Source: Girardia tigrina
Taxonomy: Eukaryota
Assembly: GCA_001938485.1 (NCBI GenBank)
Contig: MQRK01243259.1
Location: forward strand, 1 to 64,000
Direction: 5' to 3'
Length of the DNA: 64,000 nt
Below are positions 2,680-49,521 of this stretch, piece after piece (position 1 is the stretch's first letter; each line of letters opens with the position of its first letter). The translations under genes were made by a program, and so were the position numbers. The notes beneath the pieces were generated by a model that searched no databases, was not told the DNA's origin, and saw only the letters and a program-made list of their open reading frames with translations.

Positions 2680-3650
2680 AGTAGAAGAAAATGGGCATTC
2701 GGTCCCAAGACTCCCCCCGGGGGGTCACCGTAACCATGGAAAAGGTCGCAACGACCATAGCAGTGGTCATGGTTACCATGGTAACGGTCGAGGTTACCAT
2801 AACAACTTGTGCGGTTCACTTGACAACGTTTCTGATTGGTTCCCGGTAACCTAGCAACGGTCGCGATCACCCAAAAACGTTTCTGATTGGTCGGTGATCC
2901 ACTAGCAACGGTCATGATCACCAAAGCAACAGTTCAGCTTTCCATAGCAACGGTTCTGATTGCCCAGGACAGGCTTTTGATTAGTTCCAAAGTTATTAGT
3001 AACGGTTTCCATTTCCTTGACAACGGTTCCGATCACCTTAACAATGCTTCTCATTGGTTTCTGATACCTTGACAACGGTTCAGATCACCTCAACAACCAA
3101 TCAAATAACTGAAATCCTTGACAACCGTCACTGTTACCTTAAAAATCATCGAAAACACCTTAGAATCACGTTGGCAACCATCGAAATCACGTTAACAACT
3201 ATCGAAAACACCTGAAATTACCTTGACAACCGTCATCGTGACCCTAAAATCACCCAATTCACCTCAACAGACAATCAAATTACGTTGAAAATCATCAAAA
3301 ACACATTATAAACCATAATCGTTACCTTAAACCCATGAAAATCATCTTAAATATCATCAAAAACATGTAAAAACCATCAAAATTACACGAAAATGTGTAA
3401 ATCATTACTGCAGTATGTTGCACTGTGTTAATCAATACTTGCACTAAGCCAAGTCAGGCTGCACATGTGCTAATCAATACTTGCACATGTGCATGTGTGC
3501 AAATTAAAATCCATCAAATTTACCATATCAGTGCCTATGTATGCTGCACTGTGCTAATCAATAATGCATATGTGCTAATCAATGCTGCTCATGTGCAACT
3601 GTGCAAAATCTATAAGTTCACAATTTTGTAGAGTGCAATATATTCATGTT
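2680..3650 (+). repeat. Solo copy of Polinton-like terminal repeat: C6G6 palindrome, 21-bp X-box array, tgcac-rich repeats
   Basis: Colinear homology with 20985-21500, including ccccccgggggg, GTTACCATGGTAAC at 2772-2785, ctgattgg at 2832 and 2883, then gtgctaatc/gcacatgtgc repeats. Confidence 0.75.
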
Positions 3651-10729: not shown

Positions 10730-13301
10730 CGTGGCGTCGATCTTGGGGGGCGAAGGGGCGGCCGCCCCCCAATATTAATTGTAGGTGGCGAAAGAATCTT
10801 TAAATCTCATATAGAGTTTGATATTATCGGTAGTAAAGATTAATACATTGATAGGAATGATATAATGCTTACCATTAAAATAAAAGCAGTTGATGAACCA
10901 AGAAAATACATTACTGTTGACATTACAATATTAACACCGAGCAATTACCTCTTTCATTGCTTATTTAAAGATATGACCTTGTTTCTCAATAATACAAAGA
11001 TTGAGGACACTAATGATAGTTATTATCAAAAGGCTATCATTGAGACTACATTTAATTTAAGTTCAGATACGAAGATTGCGTTTCTCAAGTACATGGGGTA
11101 TGGTGAGGCAACTGAAAGAGTCAAATCCCCCCCCCCAATAATTTGCATAACTTTTTCGAATTATCACTCATTTTACCATTTTAAATTTAAGCTTTTCCCG
11201 TTTGGTACAGCATATCGGTACTGTTTTGTAATTTAGTTAAGTCGATAAAATTTGCAAATTAAATGAAAAGAGAACGAATTATTGTTGGAAATTAAAAATT
11301 TGACTTAATAAAATCTGTAATTGTACATATAAAAAAATTGTGATTTTAAAGGAAAAGTTTTTTGTGAAATTATTATTATTATTATACGTAAAATTGTATT
11401 TTATTAAAAATTATTATTATCTGAAAGTAAAATTACATTTTTGTTTGAACTCTAATTTGACTTCGTTGATGTTGTAAAAAGTTTTAAAAGTTGTGACTTT
11501 GGTAAAAAAATACTTTTTGTGAAATTTTTAAAGAGTTCATCAACTTCTGTTCTTGTGATTTATAACTCTAATCTATTATGATGCAAATTAGTAATTTTCA
11601 AAACTATTCTGATACCATCATACATTTTGAATAAACTTAAATTTATTTTTTTTATCAATTTATTTTATCGACACTTTTTTCAAGAGTGCTACAACCGGTC
11701 ATTCGACTCCCATCACTGACTGCTATCCAACCCCAACAACAGGGGACACCCATGACGGCCACGAGATGATATCGAGTTGTTCTTCAAGTCAGTCAACTGA
11801 TAAATTTGAGATTGTCGCAGAACTTCCTCTGAAAAAGACAAAGGCGATCCACTTAGTCTACGCAGAGAACCTAATCAAACAAGTACTGCTACTTTCACTG
11901 TCTCGGAGAAGAAATGGCGATTTTTTTCTGCTTAGCATAAACTTTTTACCTGGCTGGAATTGGATGAAGAAGTTGAAGCTGCCTTCTGCCACCAATGCAG
12001 ACAACTGCACCAACAAGGAGTCAGTAGTTATGTCAAAAGCGAGGCGGCATTTACTACCAAGGTCTTCACAAATTGGAAAAAGGCAACCCAGCGTTTTGGG
12101 AATTATGCGAGGAGTCTTTCGCACTGTCAATCTGCCTACAAGTTCTCGAATCTCTTGAAAGGTAGCAATATTTTCAACCAATTGAATATTCAAAATGAAG
12201 CTGAAAGAAAGAGGGTCAAAGAATGCTTAATGCAGGTGTTTTTCTCACTTCTGTTTCTTGAGCGACAAGGCCTCAATATTCGTGGACATGAAGATGTGAA
12301 CGGCAATTTCAAGCAGTTATTAAAGCTCCAATGTGGTGACTCAAGTGATTTACTTCTCTGGTTAAATAGAAAGAGCACATGGACATCAGTAGAAATCCAG
12401 GAAGAAATTCTACAGAGCATGTCCCTTACCATTATTCTCTATTTCGCAAAATAAAGAAAGGAAAGAAAATATTTAAGCATCATTGCTGATTAAACAGCAG
12501 ACTTCAGCAGTTAGGAGAAGCTGACGGTCTGCCTTCAAACAGTAAATGATAACTTTGATTTGGAAGAAACGTTTTTTGGAACGTACTCACTTGATCGTTT
12601 TGATAGCCCAACAATTTCCAGGTCCATTGAAGATATTTTATTTCGACTGAATTTGGAAATGAAGGATCATGGATTGCCTTTTGGATCGTGTATGTCATCA
12701 TTATGCGGAAGAATTGGACAAGCAGCGATTGGCCGCCAAGCTCCTTGGGTTAAAGCACCTTCGACCTGCTGGAAAGGAAAACATCACTACCATCCCCATG
12801 TAGATCATGATACGAATTAGTAGCACCCAAGTGACGCATATGATTCCGAGGGTGGTCCCTTTCATAAAAATTTATTTGGTCTGCCCAGCCACAACTGCAA
12901 CCGGCGAGTTACTTTAAGCCAGCTGAAGCTTCTCAAAACTCGCGTGAGAAGCACTATGCTCCAAGAGAGAACGAATCACCTTCTCGTCCCGAGGAGGTTT
13001 ACAACCTACAATTGAAGAAGTTGATTTATGAATTTATTCAGAAAAAGGATCTTCGTCGCAAGACGTTTGTTATAATTACTTGAAAATTTTGTGGACGAAG
13101 AATAAATTGTTAGTATTTGGATTTTGTTTTTTTACATTATGTCATGTGTCTACAGCACAGTTACTGGGAACCAGTAGGTAAATTAGTACCGTATAATTTT
13201 GTAAGCACGAGGATGTCAATTAGTGAAATTGATCAAACTAAAAATGCGATCTGCACATCTCGCCCTTACCCCTCAATAATGAAATCATATCGACGCCACT
13301 G
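10730..13301 (+). mobile_element. Internally deleted hAT element (TTF-zinc finger/DUF4371-type transposase)
   Basis: TIRs gtggcgtcgat / atcgacgccactg. ORF 11960-12454 has AFCHQC..FTNWKKA..H, RQGLNIRGHE..GNF and TSVEIQEEI. C-terminal remnant near 12900-13070. Confidence 0.85.
10801..11126 (+). pseudogene. Polinton major capsid gene fragment captured inside hAT subterminal region
   Basis: Near-identical to the reverse complement of about 23880-24198 (PSNYLFHCLFKDMTLFLNNTKIEDTNDSYYQKAIIETTFN). Confidence 0.9.
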
Positions 13302-19713: not shown

Positions 19714-19752
19714 GACAATATATTTCGACGGATCTACCGTCATCTTCAGGTC
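19714..19752 (-). ncRNA. Minimal type I hammerhead ribozyme (Penelope-associated)
   Basis: gac-CUGAAGA-u-gacgg-uagau-ccguc-GAAA-uaua-UU-guc. Confidence 0.7.
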
Positions 19753-20317
19753 ACTAATTAATAATCAATTCACCCGTATATAAATACAAATTGTACCTTA
19801 TTCTGAAGGATTTAAAAACTTTAAAAATGCATTGTTAAAAGCATCTAACAATAAATTAAATTTAAAAATTACATCACGATCTTATAAAATTCAAAATATG
19901 TTCAGTAATAATCAGTAATAATCTATTACACCTTTAACACTTTGTTCTGATATTGTTTATGAATATAAATGTAATGGGTGCGATGCCACATACATTGGAG
20001 AGACTGCCCGTCATCTCTGTAAACGAATTCAAGAACATGGTCGAAAAGAGAGTAAGAGTAATATTGCAGAACATAGGAAAAATGTAAATGTGATGTTAAT
20101 TTTGATAATTTCAAAATTCTGTGTAAGTATTTTGACATTTATTGGGAGAGAGTGTCGTGTGAAGCATTGTTAATTAGGTCACGTTGCCCTAAAATCAATG
20201 TTCAATCGACAGTCTCAATCAGCTTATTGAGAATTTTTGATTAGCATGATTTCACGCAATCGATTACATAATCATCATTTTTGTATTTATATACAGGTGA
20301 ATTGATTATTAATTGGT

Positions 20318-20355
20318 GACCTGAAGATGACGGTAGTTCCGTCGAAATATATTTT
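20318..20355 (+). ncRNA. Minimal hammerhead ribozyme core, stem I 3' arm lost
   Basis: gac-CUGAAGA-u-gacgg-uaguu-ccguc-GAAA-uaua-uu. Confidence 0.55.
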
Positions 20356-20984
20356 TAAATGGATGAGTGTTGTTATTAAAAGAAAATTTTCTTTCGGATT
20401 TCGTTATATTTATTAAATTTTATTTTTTGAATATTGTTTGGCATGCAATAGGTCGGTGGGCCTCACGCTGCACTACTTAATTGTGCGGAGTTTCACCGGC
20501 TCCAGGAAGTCCCTTCAGTTATTCCTGAAGACGCACGGTGCGGTCACCTCAGTGTCCGTGATGGGGGGGTTACTCTTCCAAGAGATAAGTGCCGGGGGTT
20601 TGACGGTTCCACTCTGGGTCGCAGACTGACAATCCACGGCCGGGTCAATGGTGACCGATAATTTCGATTACCGAAGAGTCCCTTGGATTGGGCCAAAGAA
20701 TGTATTGCGTGTGCTCTATCCTATGTGTGAGAGAACACATGTACATTTGACTTGTGCCCACACTTATTCCGCAAGAAACCGACCGAAGTGAATTCGATAA
20801 CACGGTGTTCGAACTCTCGGTAGTAACAACAAACATTGCTTTAGTTACAATGCATCTCGAGAGCAAATTAAATACGGCGATAAAATTGTTTTCAATTTAA
20901 ATTCAAACTGTGTAATTCCATTTATTTATTTAAATAAATTACATTTATTTATTTAAACGGGAACTCTCCCTCAATCAATAATTA

Positions 20985-21500
20985 ACCCCCCGGGGGGGTC
21001 CAGTCACCCGTTACCATAGTAACGGTCTCAGTTACCATATCAACGGTCTCGGTTACTATAGCAACGGTTCCAGCTCACTTTGAAACGCTTCTGATTGGTT
21101 CCCGGTACCCTAGCAACGGTCGCGATTACCTAAAAACACTTCTGATTGGTCGGTGGTTCCATAGCAACGGTTGCGATCACTCTAGCAACGGTTCCTATCA
21201 CCCTAGCCCTAGACAGCAACGGTTCCGGTTCACTTGGTAACGATAATCAAGGTCTTAGTTACCATAGCAACGGTAACCAAGGGACGTTTCTCATTAGCAA
21301 CGGATACAGTGATTCAAGGCGGTTGTAACCATGGTAACGGTTACCGTATCCATAGCAGCCGTCATCCTTTCCTTAGCAACCGAAGAAAAAAGTGCTAATA
21401 GATCACTGCACAGTGCCCAGATGTGCTAATCGATAGTGCACATTGTGCCGCACATTTTTATAGTGCTTTTGAAGTTGCACATCTGCAAAAGTGCAAAAAT
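20985..21500 (+). promoter_or_regulatory. Terminal repeat with 21-bp-phased RFX X-box/MYB-like motifs and inverted CCAAT boxes
   Basis: GTTACCATAGTAAC 21010, GTTACCATATCAAC 21031, GTTACTATAGCAAC 21052, GTTACCATAGCAAC 21258 and GTAACCATGGTAAC 21325, each running into AACGGT. CTGATTGG at 21091 and 21142. Regulatory function is inferred. Confidence 0.55.
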
Positions 21501-22131
21501 CAATACATGAAATTTTTTAAAAGTACTAGTGTCAAAAATCGATATCATGTGTTTGATGCACATTTTGATTTTCTATCTGAATGTGCTTTTAGAAATTTCA
21601 TATATTGATTAATTTTCTCTAAAATTAGCATAATGTGCAAATTTACACGAAATGCACATCGATTTTAGAGGTACAAGGAAGCAAAATATCAAAAAAATGC
21701 TGATGCACTTGAATAGTAACCCATATACATTCAGATGCCATAGCAACATTTTCAAAAAAGTGCTGAAATATTGATTTTTTCGAACATTTCTGAAATTCTC
21801 AAAAAAGTGCTCAAAAAACTATTTTTCGTATATATATGAAACCAATGTGTTGTATGTATGTTGTTTACCATCAAACAATATCTCATGAATCGCCTAATGT
21901 ACCTAATCATAAATCACAAGTACCTTGGTTTTCGTAACCAAGATACAACCTTTTAATATAATATATAAAAACCTATGAAACTTATGGATATTAATACCTA
22001 AAACATGCATGGATATTCTACACCAGAAGAATCATTATATTCATTTTTTTATTTATTTGAAGTAACATATTAAAACAAACAATAACTTTAAAAAACATTT
22101 ATTTCTTTGAAATATAATTTTGACACAACGC

Positions 22132-22627
22132 TTAACACCTTTTATAAGCACAATGTGAACCATGTTCACGATATATACATGTAATGTCTTTTGGTATCGC
22201 TTTTAGTTTGTCACATTTATATATACATATTCTCAGATCAGGAAATATAGACTTTATCAACTTTTCCTTTCGTCCATCATCATTATCCTTGACATAGAAC
22301 AATGCTTCAGTTAAATTACATCGTGATCGAATGTATCGCATTAAACAATCCTGACAAAACTTGAAATTGTGTTCTACCCACGTCAATTTATGATGATGTA
22401 ATGTTAAATAAGCATTTGTTCTTTGTGCTTTGTTTAAACAGCAATGTATTTTAGTCTAGAAATTACACCCAAACATTATATTACATTTGCAACACTAATT
22501 TAACTTACTGAAATACATAATGCAATGTATTAAACATATCGTCAACAGACATTATACACAACTCTTTAATCATATCCTCATCATTATCATCCACAAATCT
22601 TTCAAAATAAATAAAGAAGACAGGCAT
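22132..22627 (-). pseudogene. Polinton accessory protein (exonuclease-like N-terminus, C-terminal Cys/His cluster)
   Basis: MPVFFIYFE/RFVDDNDEDMIKELCIM...HYVF, then FYVKD..EK..., C..L.....C..REHGSHCA. Recognised by recall as a Polinton-associated family. Frameshifted. Confidence 0.55.
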
Positions 22628-22665: not shown

Positions 22666-23005
22666 TTATAACAATTGGCGTTTAAGCCAGTCTATACAAT
22701 AATTTCCACAAAGAAATGTTTAGCGGATTTTGATACATTACATCATTATATATGTCAGGTTGTTGCATTCGTTCCAATTTTGTTATCAACGTTGATGGGC
22801 AATACATCCCAAGTGGATCGAATACTCGTATAAGATCTGAAGTCACATGTACTGCAATCCAGTGTTCTCCTAGTAAATTAGCAGTCTGAGTATTAATTAC
22901 ATATCCTCCATCGAGTAGATAATCTGGAACTTTTATCCAGCGAATATACTCCACGGAATTGACGATATCCTTTCAGTGCTTTTTCAATCTGATATGTACT
23001 ATATA
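22666..23005 (-). pseudogene. Adenain-like cysteine protease (Polinton PRO)
   Basis: TYQIEKALKGYRQFRGVYSLD / VINTQ..GEHWIAV...FDPLG...YQ / LCGNYC. The His, Asp, Gln and Cys catalytic residues are spread over two frameshifts. Confidence 0.85.
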
Positions 23006-23087: not shown

Positions 23088-24308
23088 TTATACAATAACT
23101 GTACCATCTTTTCGTATTTATATCTCACTATCAAATACTCCATATACATACGTTGTAATTGAATTATATAATGCCTTATGGAATCTTAAATACAATTTTA
23201 AATTGCCTGTTCGTGGCATTTGCATTTGATCAACATCAAAATCAGGTGCCAAGTCAAATGTAAAGCAGGGGTATTTTGTTTTGAAATCAACCATAGTGAT
23301 TTCATTATTCATATTTTTCTTCACGAGTACCATATTCAATATTATAGACTTGTAGTATGCTTCAGTAAAATCATTCTTTTCAAAGTCAATTTTATATGAA
23401 TCTCTAAAATCAATTCCTCGATATAGGGTTAGGGAGCTAATATTACAGTTGTCAAATGCAGAGCAATATGTTTCGTAATCTACACGAACTTTTTTACTAT
23501 CTTAAAATGTTACCAATACAAATTTTGCTAAACGTTCATCACTAAACAGATTGTCCTTGTATTCACCACGTGATCCTTTACGAATTGAAAACTGAACAAT
23601 TTTTGTTTTTCGAATGGAATATATAGCATTTTGATTATCAAGACCCATAATATGATTCTGTTGTGCGAACACGCCGTATTAATAACTTTGCACTTTCAAT
23701 ATATATTTTAGGCTTAATCTCTGTTTCAGTACCAGTCTTTTCATATTGAAAGATAACTTTACTTTCATTTCGATGAATCTTGATTGTTATATTGACATTT
23801 GGTATGAGATATTTTGGCTGCTCAAAAAAGTCCAGATTTAACGATCCGCATAATGTCATCAAGGCTGATTTCTTCAACCATTTGACTCTTTCAGTTGCCT
23901 CACCATACCTCATGTACTTGAGAAACGTAATCTTCGTATCTGAACTTAAATTAAATGTAGTCTCAATGATAGCCTTTTGATAATAACTATCATTAGTGTC
24001 CTCAATCTTTGTATTATTGAGAAACAAGGTCATATCTTTAAATAAGCAATGAAAGAGGTAATTGCTCGGTGTTAATTTTGTAATGTCTTTTCCTGATTCA
24101 TCAACTGCTTTTATTTTAATGGTAAGCATTTATATAAGCAATTCATATCAATGTATTCCTCTTTACTACCGATAATATCAAACTCTATATGAGATTTATT
24201 ATACCCACTAATACTATCTTTGGGGTAAATATCTTCAAAAGCATATGATTCTATAACAACTTGTGGTGGAGCTGAACTACATATGTCCAATTGCGATTTA
24301 GCACTCAT
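23088..24308 (-). pseudogene. Polinton/adintovirus major capsid protein
   Basis: MSAKSQLDIC..PPQVVIE...IEFDI...EYID, HCLFKD..LFLN, LNLDFFEQPKYLIPNVNITIKIHRN, DNLF, FTFDLAPD, GNLKLYLRF, YGVFD. About 400 codons with stops and frameshifts. Confidence 0.88.
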
Positions 24309-24309
24309 T

Positions 24310-24490
24310 CTGATAATATCGTTTTCATACGTTTTGTTTCTTTGTTTATATCTAAGCCTTTTTTCTTTTCTTCCTCCACCACCTTGATCCATTATTGAAA
24401 CGGCTTCACGAAAAGCACCTTTAGCATTGTACTTAATTTCTGCCAATATCTCAGCAGCAGCTTCCTTTAATGCTTCAACAGGTTTTTTAA
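24310..24490 (-). pseudogene. C-terminal part of basic GxG core-like protein upstream of the capsid gene
   Basis: ..MDQGGGGRKEKRLRYKQRNKTYENDII abutting the capsid start. 5' end replaced by a terminal-repeat fragment. Confidence 0.5.
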
Positions 24491-24599
24491 TTGCTGATGA
24501 GAAACGTCCCTTGGTTACCGTTGCTATGTACATATGAGAGTGTGCATGCGCACTGAAGGCAAGTAGAAGTGTTATAATGTGATTTTATGTTTAGTAATT

Positions 24600-27148
24600 A
24601 TTAGACGTTCTTGGAACATCGTCGGAATTATTACTATGAGATATTTCTGACATCAAAACTTTTACTATTCCACACAAAAAATGTTTAAATTTAATATTTA
24701 AACAAACTTATTATTTTTCTTTTGAGAAACAATTTGTTTTATAAATCTTAAACCGATATAAATAAAAATACTTAAATATTCATATTTGATTTTTTTCATT
24801 ACTTTTATAAATCAATTTTAAATTACGATAACATTTTAACACATTTAATCGTTTCTATAATTATATTAATTTTTTTAAAATCGTTCCACATATAAAAATT
24901 ATACATTTTAATTTTTATATTATATTAAAAACTCTCAAAAATTGTTATTATTTGCAATTTAATTGATCTTCTTAATTTTAGTAATTTTAATTTTTAAAAC
25001 GTTACATATTTAATTATATAAAAATTTTCATTTGTATATATTTAATATAACCTCCTTTCAAAAATTTTCATAGCATTTTTAATTCCTAACATTCCCCTTT
25101 TTCTTTCAAATTGTTGAACTTTTCGACATTTCTTACTATTTGTTTTTTCACTTTATCCTCAAGTTTATAATTCCTCTCATGTATTTTGTCTATTATGGTG
25201 TATGGTCCCTCATATCTGTCATCATCTTTATTTCTTATCCTTTTTTTACAAGGTGTGGACCTTATTTCCGATATTGAAATTTCATTCTGTTTTTCCGTCT
25301 GGATACTTGATGTTTTCGTCTGACGTGTTCATTTTATTGCTAACCACTTCAGTCTATCTATTTTTCTATTTAAAATTACTTCAGCCGGACTTCTTCCAAT
25401 TGTTTTCTGGCGTGTTGTATTTAATGTGAATTCCAACTTTGGCAGCAAATCAGCCCAACTTGTCTCTTTTCTTTTTTTTAAACTTACTTGGATATACTAT
25501 CATATCGTTTGGAATTGTCTATCCACTATATCATTGGTGTTATGGTGGTACGGACTAGAGAAAACTAACTGAATACCTTGTTTTCTCATTAATTCTTGTA
25601 CTTTCTGTGATTCAAAAAAATCCTCATGTATTTCCTTAGGAGCACCAAATTTTAATATCCATTTTGTTAAAATCGTTTGTATAATCGTCTGTTCATCTTG
25701 TCTTTTGATGGCTGTTAAAATAATATATTTGCTAAAATGATCAATCATGGCCATTATATATTTTTCTTTTCTTATTGTTTCTCTCCATGGGCCACATATA
25801 TCGATGTATACTTTCTCAAACGGTTCAGATGATGTTATCTTGATTGTCTCTTCTTTAGTCTACGACGTATCTGCTTTTGTTTTTTGACATTCTTTACAAG
25901 TTCCAACTACTTCTTTCACTGTTTTGCATTCCTCTTCCATCTCAAATTTATCCTTTAAATAATGGTAAACTTTTTCCGCTTCTGCATGACATAACAATCT
26001 ATGTGTCTGTGCGATTAATTCACTTATTTTCTCTTTGGGTATATATTCTCTGTGTGCTTCATTTGCCTGCCTTCTTGTTATAACCGCTATTAATCGTGTT
26101 TTAAATCTGTCTGATTTTGCGTCTTCATGTTACATTTGACAATGGGCACATGTGTCACATTTGCTTCGAGACAGCATATCTGCATTTCCATGTATTTCAC
26201 CTTTTCTGTATACCATCTCTATATCCAAACTACTGAGATAATTGATCCATGTCTGAAACTAGGCTGTTATTGGTTTTTTTGTATGTAACATAAAAGTGAC
26301 GGCTTAATGATCTGTCCTTAGTTTAAATCTTTTCCCCTATAAATGATTAAAATGTTGACAAAAATAATAAATGGCCAAAAGTTCTTTCCTTGTTATACAA
26401 TATCCTTTTGCAAGAGCTCCCATCGAATGTGAGCCATAAGCTATTACATGTTCTATTTCGGATTCGCCAACTTGTGACAGTACTGCTCCTATACTATCAA
26501 AACGGGTATCCGTATCCAAAATAAACTCTTTATTGAAGTTCGAGAATGCTAAAATCGGGGCTGTTATGAGGGATTTCTTCATATCGTTAAAAGCTAGTTC
26601 ACATGAGTCCACCCATACTAGTTTATCTTAATTCGATCCACATAACCCTTCTAGCGCCCTGGCCTTTTTGGGGTACCCATTTATGAATCACCTATAGTAG
26701 TTAAATATTCCCAGAAAACTTCTCAAATTTTTCATGCAGTTTGGTCTCTGGAATCCTTCAATTGCTTTAATTTTATCTGGATCCGTGTGAATACCTTCTC
26801 TTTTTACTACATTTCCTAAGAATTTTACCTCATCCTTTAAAAATTTGCATTTAGATGGTTTTATTCTTAAATTAGCTTTCTCAATTTGTTGGAAAACTTC
26901 ACCCAATACTTTATAATGTTCTTCTATGGTCTGAGTTGCTATCAATATATCATCCATATATACTGACGTTCTTTTCAACTCTCAAAAAATTGTTATTATT
27001 TGCAATTTAATTGATCTTAATTTTAGTAGTTTTATTTTTTAAAACTTTATTTTTTATTTTTTATATTTAATGATGTAAAAATTTTCATTTGTACATATTT
27101 AATATAACCTTCTTTCAAAACTTTTCATAGCATTTTTAATTCCTAACA
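24600..27148 (-). mobile_element. Gypsy LTR retrotransposon with large internal deletion
   Basis: RT (YMDDIL), RNase H (FILDTD..IGAVLSQ, ELLAI) and integrase (IDHFSKY, SPYHH) fragments. LTR starts TGTTAGGAATT at 27148 and 25091. Polypurine tract at 25092-25105. Direct repeat about 24930-25091 / 26978-27148. Left boundary approximate. Confidence 0.88.
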
Positions 27149-28689
27149 GTAATTGTTTGAATAATTCGAAATAAGCGAGAGATTTGAATCGGTCTCAGTA
27201 TTTTTGGGTTAAATAAAATTTTTTATTATTGACCTTATTTTAGTCACTACAAAAAGCATTATTGAAATTCAGAATCCAAAATAATTAAAATAATAAAATA
27301 TATTTTTACATGAACCTATCATCTGAAAGATATAAAAAGGATCGACTAATAATACAAAACTAGAAAATGAGAACAAAGATAGTAGCAAAGATAGTTTATT
27401 GTCGCCTCTTTTGCAATTAAAAGACGTTATTTATTTTTTAACGCTCAGTAAATGTTTACATAATATTAAAAATCGTTTTGGTATTTAAGAAAAATAAAAA
27501 AAATATAAGTTGATGTAAGCTTTATAATATTTCAAAAGATATATGCTTTCAAATTTGATAAAAAATATATTCATGGTTTACTTTTTAACCCTTTAATTTA
27601 TACATTAATTAATTTTTTAAAACTAAATTAAGTCTTATTACTGTTTTCAACACTTAGAATAAATTGATAAGTTTTTTATTTTAATTAATTTTTTAGCGAC
27701 TTTCAGTTTGATGATCGATGGTCGTTCTATGGCCTATTTTTAATGTAATCTTCTTCAGTTTCTTCTAAAATTTTATAATCAAGACTCTTTTTCTGTTATG
27801 CCTATCAGATAAAGGGGTTAATTGTTTCACAGTTCATTGAAGTTATTAGTTTTCTGCTTAAAATTTTCGTGAGTGTATCATTAATAACAAATTACTCTTA
27901 TTTTATTTAACAAAAAAAATTGAGAAAAAATAATTTTAATTTTTGTTATTTGATATTTGAAAATTAATATCAAAGTAATTATTTTTGAAATGTGGAATAA
28001 ACTGTAAATCAAAGTTTATTAAATTTTAAAATTTTTTAAAAAATCAAAAAAGATTAAAATCAAAACTCTGAACACAATCTTGAAATTCTGTTTGAGGTAT
28101 TAATTTTGGTGGAATATCGACCATCTTTAGTCTCAAATTAACATTAGTGTAATACAGTGATAGTCAACCTGGTCCATACCGCCCTTTAGTGGGCGTGGGA
28201 TTTTTTTTATGTTAGTTCAAATATTATTGTTTTTAAAAGCAAATATGTTGTTGAAATTATTATTTAAGAACAATTTTATTTATAAAGCATATTCCATTTT
28301 TCAGCTCTTCAGATATAAGTTGCGTTTTGATGTACACAGATTTGAACCCATAAAAATACTTAAATAATGCGTTCAGATTATTTGTTCTTGTATTTACTGT
28401 CCAACTTATTGTTGGTGCAGGTGGTTTTGCTTCTTTGTATTTATATAAATATGTATTTTTACTAAAAATCACACTAAGGAGTTAAAAGCACATCGTTTGC
28501 TATTATATTTTTACACGATTACTTAAAATCCTTTTACATTGCTGCAGTTCGATAGAATAAATAATTTACAGAAACTTAATATGAATTGTACTACGAATTT
28601 TGTTTTTGCCTTATGTCATTAGATGGTGCTGTCCAGGGCATTAAGATTATCTCTTAAAGTTTTTACATATTTTAGAGGAACTGAGGAAT

Positions 28690-48267: not shown

Positions 48268-49521
48268 ATGATTCCTCAGTGTTCCCCTGACGATCAATAC
48301 TCATTTTTAAAAACAAATTTTGTAAAATACTTTGTTTCCTGGAGTTTTGCCCTACTTAGTTTAGCAGGGATATTCGGAAGTATACTTTGTATTATAGTTA
48401 TAATAAAACACCGAGTTTTTGTACATGGTACTCGGTACTGGTTTATTTATTTATCCATGAGTGATATTCTAATGTTGGCATTTCCCGCGATGGATTTATA
48501 TCTTTATTGTATGATTGGAAATTATTATATAATTATATTATCGAAATTGAGTGTTTTTGGTTGTGAACTTCGAAATTGTGCGATAAACTTTTTTGCTTGG
48601 ACTGCAAACGTTCTTCAAGCTGGTTTATCTATTGAAAGAACAATCAGTGTTGTTAATCCAATGCGCTCAAGAATAATTTTTACAACAGGACGAACGAAAC
48701 TTATTATTGGAATTCTAATATCTATCAGCTTCATTTCGTCATCTTTTATCAATTTTCTGACATTTAAACGTGTTAACGGAACGTGTACACGTCCGACCCA
48801 CCCCAATGCGTCTATTGATGTCACTCGTATTGTGTATTCAATAGATCTTATAATATTTAGAGCCATACCCTTTTTAGTGATGCTTATTTCTTCAATTGTT
48901 ATTATAATCCTTATGAAGTATCATGGTCGAAAACGTGAACGCATCGGCCACCAACCCGGAAATTTTAATTCAAAATCGCAATTAAAGAATAGAGAATTTA
49001 AAATGTCTGTAATATTAATTTCCATGAATATGGCGACTTTGATAACGAACCCTTTATTTTTGATATTCGAACTAGTCGATGGTGCGGGATCAGAAGGTCA
49101 AACCTATGGAAAGCTAACGAACAATTATTGCATCTCAGATTTTTTAATCCTTCTTTTCAATTTTTTGATTTATTTCAATAATCAAACGAATTGGATATTC
49201 TACGTCCTCATCGGAGCGAAATTCCAACATTATTTTCTTTTAATTTTGTCCAATTTATTTCCATTTTTCAAAAAAGAAAGCGAAGATTCAAACAGTTTAC
49301 CCTACGAGTCGACGGCAGTGGCCGATAAAAAACTACTGAAAAATTCGGATTTCCTAATTCCCAACAAAATCCAAAATCTGAATTTGGAAAGGAAATTCTC
49401 TTGTTTATGTTGGAAAATTAAAAAACGTAATTTACATTACAATAAGGAAAATTTAGGAGAATCAAATATGAATCAAGAAAACGAAACAGAAATCGTTGCT
49501 TTGATACATACGACTCTTTAG
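48268..49521 (+). CDS. Intronless rhodopsin-class (family A) orphan GPCR, peptide-receptor-like, 417 aa
   Basis: Seven hydrophobic segments. TM2 LSMSD, TM3 GC...SIERT followed by VVNPMR, TM5 IPF, TM6 NP, TM7 NWIFY..GAKF. Uninterrupted ORF with aataaa downstream. Confidence 0.92.
   Translation: MIPQCSPDDQYSFLKTNFVKYFVSWSFALLSLAGIFGSILCIIVIIKHRVFVHGTRYWFIYLSMSDILMLAFPAMDLYLYCMIGNYYIIILSKLSVFGCELRNCAINFFAWTANVLQAGLSIERTISVVNPMRSRIIFTTGRTKLIIGILISISFISSSFINFLTFKRVNGTCTRPTHPNASIDVTRIVYSIDLIIFRAIPFLVMLISSIVIIILMKYHGRKRERIGHQPGNFNSKSQLKNREFKMSVILISMNMATLITNPLFLIFELVDGAGSEGQTYGKLTNNYCISDFLILLFNFLIYFNNQTNWIFYVLIGAKFQHYFLLILSNLFPFFKKESEDSNSLPYESTAVADKKLLKNSDFLIPNKIQNLNLERKFSCLCWKIKKRNLHYNKENLGESNMNQENETEIVALIHTTL

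Follow-up and report, generated by a model that had tools for sequence, protein, structure and literature searches.

The question raised by this locus is what a dense array of repeated motifs represents at the edge of Polinton genes in Girardia tigrina, and which proteins would bind it. The array lies on contig MQRK01243259.1, in a window of 64 kb (positions 1-64,000, forward strand), which is the whole stretch of DNA that was analysed. The initial annotation described positions 20985-21500 as the end of a Polinton, formed by a tandem array of 21-bp period in which each unit is an X-box palindrome overlapping a MYB site, with two CCAAT boxes, and proposed that RFX, MYB and NF-Y activate the element in the male germ line or in ciliated cells. 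The array with its repeated RFX-like and NF-Y-like motifs is real, and that first description is confirmed in part. The reading preferred here, with a probability of about 0.5, is that the array forms the outer part of a likely terminal inverted repeat (TIR), and that its half X-boxes and CCAAT boxes, set in helical phase, are predicted sites for the host factors RFX and NF-Y and would act like an enhancer. The features are listed below; the array at 20985-21500 is called copy A and a diverged second array copy B.

2680..3650, + strand: second, diverged terminal zone (copy B; 78.6% identity over 182 bp), with zones I and II, 17 unit positions and 3 X-Y-like modules
20969..21900, no strand: high-copy terminal zone, putative TIR, about 0.93 kb, from contig depth, both limits approximate
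20986..20998, no strand: palindromic C6G7 run bordering the array on its outer side, one of only two such runs in the window
21008..21385, + strand: Zone I, 15 unit positions set on a grid of about 10.4 bp, conserved core CC(A/T)TRGYAACGGT
21059..21100, + strand: X-Y-like module 1, a half-site, 25 nt and CTGATTGG (AACCAATCAG on the - strand)
21111..21151, + strand: X-Y-like module 2, a half-site, 24 nt and CTGATTGG (GACCAATCAG on the - strand)
21390..21710, no strand: Zone II, GTGCTAAT and TGCACA repeats, the deepest part of the zone in runs X1-X3
21734..21747, + strand: isolated X-box with one mismatch to GTTRCCATRGYAAC
22132..22455, - strand: open frame of 107 aa, no Pfam match, depth about that of the Polinton body
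22682..22972, - strand: adenain-type maturation protease fragment (ESM Atlas 0.94-0.96 to Preplasmiviricota clusters)
23118..24308, - strand: major capsid protein gene, broken, readable as three pieces
24491..24528, - strand: 38-bp inverted copy of 21263-21300 (37 of 38 identical), at the site where the Polinton genes stop

Composition of the array

YAACGGT occurs nine times within 20985-21500, always on the + strand (20 times in the whole window, with 7 in copy B), and two CTGATTGG boxes are present at 21091 and 21142, 51 bp apart, as had been stated. Full X-boxes (GTNRCCNNRGYAAC) are found at 21010, 21258 and 21325 in copy A and once in copy B, four in total. Nine YAACGGT, three X-boxes or two CTGATTGG boxes were each reached by none of 2000 dinucleotide shuffles; such shuffles ignore tandem duplication, so the result reflects repetition and not selection. 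The bare CCAAT pentamer is not enriched, two or more being present in 680 of the 2000 shuffles.

The description of each unit as an X-box palindrome does not hold. Two intact half-sites per unit, the mark of a palindromic RFX1-3 array, are found at 2 of the 15 unit positions of copy A and at 1 of the 17 of copy B. In copy A the left half has at most one mismatch in 6 units and is decayed in the other 9, and the right half, RGYAAC, is exact at 11 positions and is followed by GGT, which gives a one-sided X-box. RFX5 and RFX7 are reported to use an X-box with one half-site, unlike the palindrome of RFX1-3, and RFX7 peaks to carry CCAAT boxes (PMC8287911). The array unit appears closer to this X-box with one half-site (RFX5/RFX7) than to the RFX1-3 palindrome of cilia genes, and the suggested link to cilia and spermatocytes is weakened by this one-sidedness. 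The MYB sites have no independent support, since every exact YAACGG (10 of the 15 unit positions in copy A) shares its YAAC with an X-box half-site position; the GG of YAACGG is identical between the two copies at 11 of 16 positions.

The 21-bp period stands in part: spacings of 21 bp do occur, but they do not run evenly through the array. Within the array of copy A, 21010-21068 and 21162-21207 are the only tandem repeats reported by Tandem Repeats Finder, and the 12 gaps between its 13 profile-scored anchors measure 21, 21, 52, 51, 21, 31, 21, 30, 30, 37, 21 and 21 bp. Zone I units are 21 bp long, or 30/31 bp where 9-10 bp have been added, and all units of the array share one orientation. All five occurrences of GTGCTAAT in the window sit in Zone II or in the matching zone of copy B. 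These GTGCTAAT/TGCACA zones (21390-21710; 3400-3640) have spacings of 21, 42 and 105 bp in copy B, and the motif zone has the highest summed depth of the whole stretch.

Several other interpretations of the array were rejected. It is not a coding repeat, because the 31- and 52-bp gaps shift the frame. A hairpin or racket structure was discarded, since 24 of 100 shuffles folded as well as the single strand 20980-21390 (z -0.70), and so was a structured RNA, for which three Rfam matches were obtained, all far below the gathering score.

The terminal zone and its neighbours

The repeated sequence is larger than 20985-21500, the interval first given. The flank is single-copy up to about 20960 in the contigs of two DNA runs, and unique flank contigs (20364-20840 and 20812-20992) have a depth of 186-217 in X1. 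At least 29 letters up to and including 20997 are shared with a multi-copy contig, which puts the start of the repeated part no further right than 20969; the high-copy zone reaches about 21900. Summed contig depth, which is not equal to copy number, is about 490 over 20461-20782 and in the millions from bin 20944-21104 until about 21900, and drops about 8-fold in X1 between bins 21749-21909 and 21910-22070. Over the Polinton genes it is about 0.5-0.7 million, and the zone is deeper than the genes by 6-25-fold in X1, 12-40-fold in X2 and 7-30-fold in X3, not by 2-fold. The depth profile of one run, guessed to be RNA, mirrors the DNA profile; run X21, from another organism, gave 25 reads, almost none of them on the array. 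The small-share runs X5-X20 contributed to none of these figures.

The genes beside the zone are on the - strand and read towards the array, the capsid pieces first and then the protease fragment. One of the Preplasmiviricota clusters matching the protease carries PF00770 (Peptidase_C5) on 14% of its members, and the fragment also gave a weak match to the ASFV protease S273R (E 0.52). The capsid pieces had no match in Pfam or PDB sequence searches, so the capsid call rests on ESM Atlas leads and gene order. A natural protein of 413 aa is 93% identical to the middle capsid piece and 78% identical to the N-terminal piece; it has an ESM Atlas score of 0.98 to a cluster in which 24% of the members carry PF21738 (double jelly roll), a recognition below the threshold of the tool. 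On this sequence evidence two hallmarks of a Polinton/Maverick, a double jelly-roll capsid protein and an adenovirus-type cysteine protease, appear to be present. The protein-primed DNA polymerase B, retroviral-type integrase and packaging ATPase of Polintons were not found in this element copy, which is cut at about 24490-24530 and followed by Gypsy-type RT/RNaseH/integrase pieces.

Further traces of the capsid gene were observed. An isolated fragment of the same gene lies on the + strand at 10801-11126 (99% over 208 bp to 23880-24087); it has four codons absent from the 23880-24087 copy and no adjoining terminal zone. Intact capsid relatives of 87-93% identity are present in JGI/ENA/Logan assemblies on contigs of 1-4 kb, as is a 46%-identical capsid group on contigs of 9-16 kb. 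Upstream of the capsid gene, at 24320-24490, a remnant frame with QGGGG and an arginine/lysine-rich end is fused to the 38-bp inverted piece; its end presumably resembles that of adenain-processed core proteins.

Copy B has its array at 2710-3650, with the C-G run at 2713, the same place as in copy A; the C6G6-7 palindromes at the outer edges of the two copies (20986-20998 and 2713-2724) are the only ones in the window. No Polinton gene was recognised in the readable 3.4 kb behind copy B, where a gag-like remnant lies. Pattern scans for the array gave 2 and 1 loci in viral contigs and 2 loci in metagenome contigs, the four inspected being isolated matches without an array, and capsid-protein scans of the viral contigs gave no match.

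The claimed Polinton end is upheld to the extent that the array edges a high-copy zone contiguous with Polinton genes. Like Polinton/Maverick TIRs, the zone has protease and capsid neighbours, an inverted partner fragment and a fitting size, its 0.93 kb or so falling within the 46-1447 bp given for Maverick TIRs (PMC8097293). Unlike in those TIRs, neither a full TIR pair nor a 6-bp target-site duplication (TSD) nor a 5'-AG end was seen for copy A in the window, a TSD being unreadable without the other element end. The inverted piece at 24491-24528 is, from its sequence and place, a possible remnant of the other TIR.

It is quite unlikely that the zone is a separate and far more abundant non-autonomous element, or a dispersed repeat, that abuts a Polinton fragment. 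Such a repeat would agree with a zone depth 6-40 times that of the genes, with the gag-like remnant in place of Polinton genes behind copy B, with the lack of a canonical terminus in copy A and with the finding that no contig bridges array and genes among the 24 pieces shown of about 189,750. Summed depth is however not copy number, and between array and genes it never falls back to the single-copy level, unlike on the flank side. At 21912 there are two groups of loose ends (115 and 119 records) whose sequence is similar to the adjoining part of the window, an indication that other copies have this junction too. The 38-bp inverted partner at the far end of the genes also argues against a separate repeat, as does AGTAG at 2680, where copy B begins; it is close to (AGT)2, the Maverick end motif (PMC8097293), with a chance of about 2-3% by density in 40 bp. 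The likeliest reading is that the terminal zone is a TIR common to many gene-less or diverged derivatives.

Two further proposals on the outer end were discarded. A piggyBac-type TTAA/CCC end is contradicted by other copies, which share sequence to the left of TTAA, and by copy B, which has no TTAA. Loss of a few terminal bases from copy A is unsupported, since the homology between the outer 40 bp or so of copies A and B is non-significant (603 of 2808 random segments score as well).

Spacing and phase of the sites

In the arrays of both copies, 5 of 5 CT[GC]ATTGG boxes sit 24-25 nt past a CAAC half-site on the same strand; the window has 9 such boxes, and the 4 outside the arrays are without this spacing (shuffle mean 0.02). 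A one-mismatch CCAAT box at 2956-2963 in copy B, 25 nt past a half-site, is outside the count of five. The X-Y module of MHC class II genes (RFX5/NF-Y) has, like the array, a one-sided X-box ending in TAGCAAC and then CTGATTGG on the same strand. By hand count on reporter primers for the mouse H2-E class II promoter, the X-Y interval is 24 nt in the same order and orientation (PMC4374748), against 24-25 nt in the array, and the distance between RFX5 and NF-Y is described as conserved and functionally essential (PMC4889920). Unlike the MHC class II module, the array is multimerised on a 21-bp lattice in an invertebrate mobile element, and its binding is predicted. CIITA and the MHC are not known outside vertebrates. 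The spacing match was noticed after the fact, and the chance of a single match is about 5-7% (hand reckoning: 2-3 of 21 phases, 1 of 2 strands). The five modules probably descend from one ancestral 51-bp unit, so that the match is worth about one event.

In both copies together, 14 of 27 gaps are 21 bp, and the other 13 include no multiple of 21. Eleven of these 13 deviate by no more than 1.6 bp from a multiple of 10.4 bp (expected share 0.31), the off-phase gaps being one of 37 bp in copy A and one of 49 bp in copy B. The best-fit period is 10.35 bp in copy B (R 0.92) and 10.45 bp in copy A (R 0.60), and the fit at 21 bp is poorer (R 0.34 and 0.44). Many gaps are descendants of one 51/52-bp unit, a 21-bp unit joined to one of 30/31 bp, in which the CCAAT box is present as a cassette of about 10 bp. 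When duplicated gaps are merged to independent events, p is 0.013 (5 of 6), 0.035 (4 of 5) or 0.09 (3 of 4), with period and tolerance picked after the data were seen. Helical phasing of the units, at a merged p of about 0.01-0.09, is suggestive and not proven. Nucleosome-type dinucleotide periodicity is absent in copy A and weak in copy B. As for the annotated RFX and NF-Y sites, the geometry, with indels that keep phase and an X-Y spacing of 24-25 nt, lends support to an RFX-like/NF-Y-like architecture at the level of sequence.

Neutral, minisatellite-like growth would account for the array by slippage of one 21-bp and one 51-bp unit, motif likeness and phase being due to descent from few events. 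Many gaps do copy one 51/52-bp unit, a match to a short consensus motif is easily obtained, and the left half-site is decayed in 9 of 15 units. The difference in conservation between motifs and spacers is also non-significant: between copies A and B, the claimed motifs are identical at 103 of 128 positions and the remainder at 66 of 91 (Fisher p=0.11, from two copies), and the right half, GG and CCAAT alone at 64 of 80 against 105 of 139 (p=0.28). This explanation is nevertheless considered unlikely. Copy A contains three or four unrelated insertions of 9-10 bp that keep phase, and the two copies, 22% apart, both keep the C-G run, both CCAAT boxes (16 of 16 bases identical) and zone II. Conservation within the unit is uneven: across 29 units, the core has about 0.6-2.0 bits and three spacer columns have 0.07-0.25 bits, a contrast that is partly circular because the anchors were chosen on YAACGG. 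A stronger decay of the units beside a CCAAT box (p=0.0004) was dropped as biased, 3 of the 5 having been placed by position and the others by score.

Candidate binders and known systems

If host factors are the binders, the 21-bp unit would have grown through local duplication, and insertions of 9-10 bp, the CCAAT cassette among them, would have been retained because they leave the sites on one helical face. RFX would occupy the half-sites and NF-Y the CCAAT boxes, with cooperative binding as in the MHC class II X-Y module, and the bound factors would open the chromatin and lead to early transcription of the element. The same platform may also aid protein-primed replication, like host factors at adenovirus ends. 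The excess depth of the zone over the genes would be due to many gene-less or diverged derivatives that keep this end. RFX1 sites occur in the enhancers of HBV and polyomavirus, and the ITR of adenovirus has host-factor sites for NFI and Oct-1. The auxiliary origin of adenovirus spans about 50 bp, against about 400 bp for the array. NF-I is described as a host factor of the adenovirus ITR (PMC6410123).

Planarian Polintons are reported to be silenced by piRNA, with H3K4me3 and RNA levels rising as cells differentiate into epidermis and neurons (PMC8532177). Cilia modules have been connected with a planarian Rfx orthologue, and open chromatin of neurons with NFY motifs (PMC12660999), NF-YB is required in spermatogonial stem cells (PMC11802806), and MYBL1, RFX2 and NFY are listed among meiotic regulators (PMC4983049). 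These data fit loosely, concern other loci than this repeat and would favour neither germ line nor soma. By analogy with them, ciliated or neuronal differentiation would fit as well as the male germ line proposed at first.

A live but rather unlikely alternative to host RFX and NF-Y is that the phased repeats are bound by a protein of the element (its packaging ATPase, its integrase or a replication protein) and act as a signal for packaging or for replication, the RFX likeness being incidental or secondary. The adenovirus packaging domain, in a related virus group, is similar to the array in having repeats 21 bp apart a few hundred bases from the end: its A-repeats are binding sites of the ATPase IVa2, work in pairs with a spacing of 21 bp (two turns) and are located at 220-400 bp from the genome end (PMC5033970). 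The array has the same 21-bp spacing about 40-420 bp from the edge, with all units one way; Polintons encode a packaging ATPase (PMC10748475), and retention of the array in gene-less derivatives would fit a cis signal needed for mobility. The units are however unlike the TTTG-N8-CG of adenovirus, and chance would hardly produce four full X-boxes together with complete RRCCAATSAG boxes whose distance is fixed. The adenovirus domain also differs in lying outside the ITR at one end only and in binding viral IVa2/22K (PMC5033970), and this copy of the element has no ATPase, polymerase or integrase gene. If the array binds an element protein instead of RFX and NF-Y, it is a candidate for a Polinton packaging or replication signal.

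Other mobile elements carry comparable host-factor sites in their terminal repeats. LTR enhancers of mouse ERVK RLTR10B are bound by A-MYB in testis (bioRxiv 10.1101/2020.03.11.987230), and NF-Y modules are described in LTR12/ERV1 (PMC4889920). Like the array, these are terminal repeats in many copies with sites for germline or pioneer-type host factors; they differ in being retroviral LTRs with shown binding, whereas the array belongs to a DNA virus-like element, its sites are predicted and its MYB motif is inseparable from the X-box. Mavericks were reported as expanded in Dugesia (bioRxiv 10.64898/2025.12.11.693146). The accounts of Polinton/Maverick TIRs in the relevant parts of PMC8097293 and PMC10748475 give length, end motif and TSD, and no internal phased motif array. 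No Polinton TIR with such a phased X-box/CCAAT array was found in the literature, Repbase entries, supplements and subscription papers being outside the scope of the search. The kind of element is known (Polinton); what appears to be undescribed is the presence, in its end region, of a phased X-box/CCAAT array with X-Y geometry.

The TIRs of animal Polintons have been described by length and end motif only, and a phased array of RFX/NF-Y-like sites would be a rare clue to the manner and place of their activation, one that can be examined directly in animals amenable to RNAi and ATAC-seq. From its depth, the zone may rank among the commonest motif-bearing repeats of the genome, and could for this reason bias motif analyses or supply enhancers. 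A wider proposal, which is regarded as doubtful, is that the terminal repeat of a flatworm Polinton family acquired, in an evolution independent of vertebrate MHC genes, a multimerised RFX-NF-Y enhanceosome whose phase is kept by selection; the enhanceosome would time activation to RFX-active cells (sperm lineage or ciliated), and derivatives would have scattered thousands of modules through the host genome.

Other features of the window were also recorded. At 19717-20353, a GIY-YIG fragment (E 2.7e-4, below the cut-off) lies between 74-bp inverted arms of 96% identity and is likely the end of a Penelope-like element. The Gypsy-type RT, RNase H and integrase pieces are on the - strand at 24900-27150, between direct repeats at 25006-25091 and 27063-27148 (94%), and no gag or protease was seen between the right repeat and the RT. 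An intact single-exon gene for a rhodopsin-family GPCR of 417 aa is present at 48268-49521, its nearest named matches (36-42%) being from a monogenean and a trematode.
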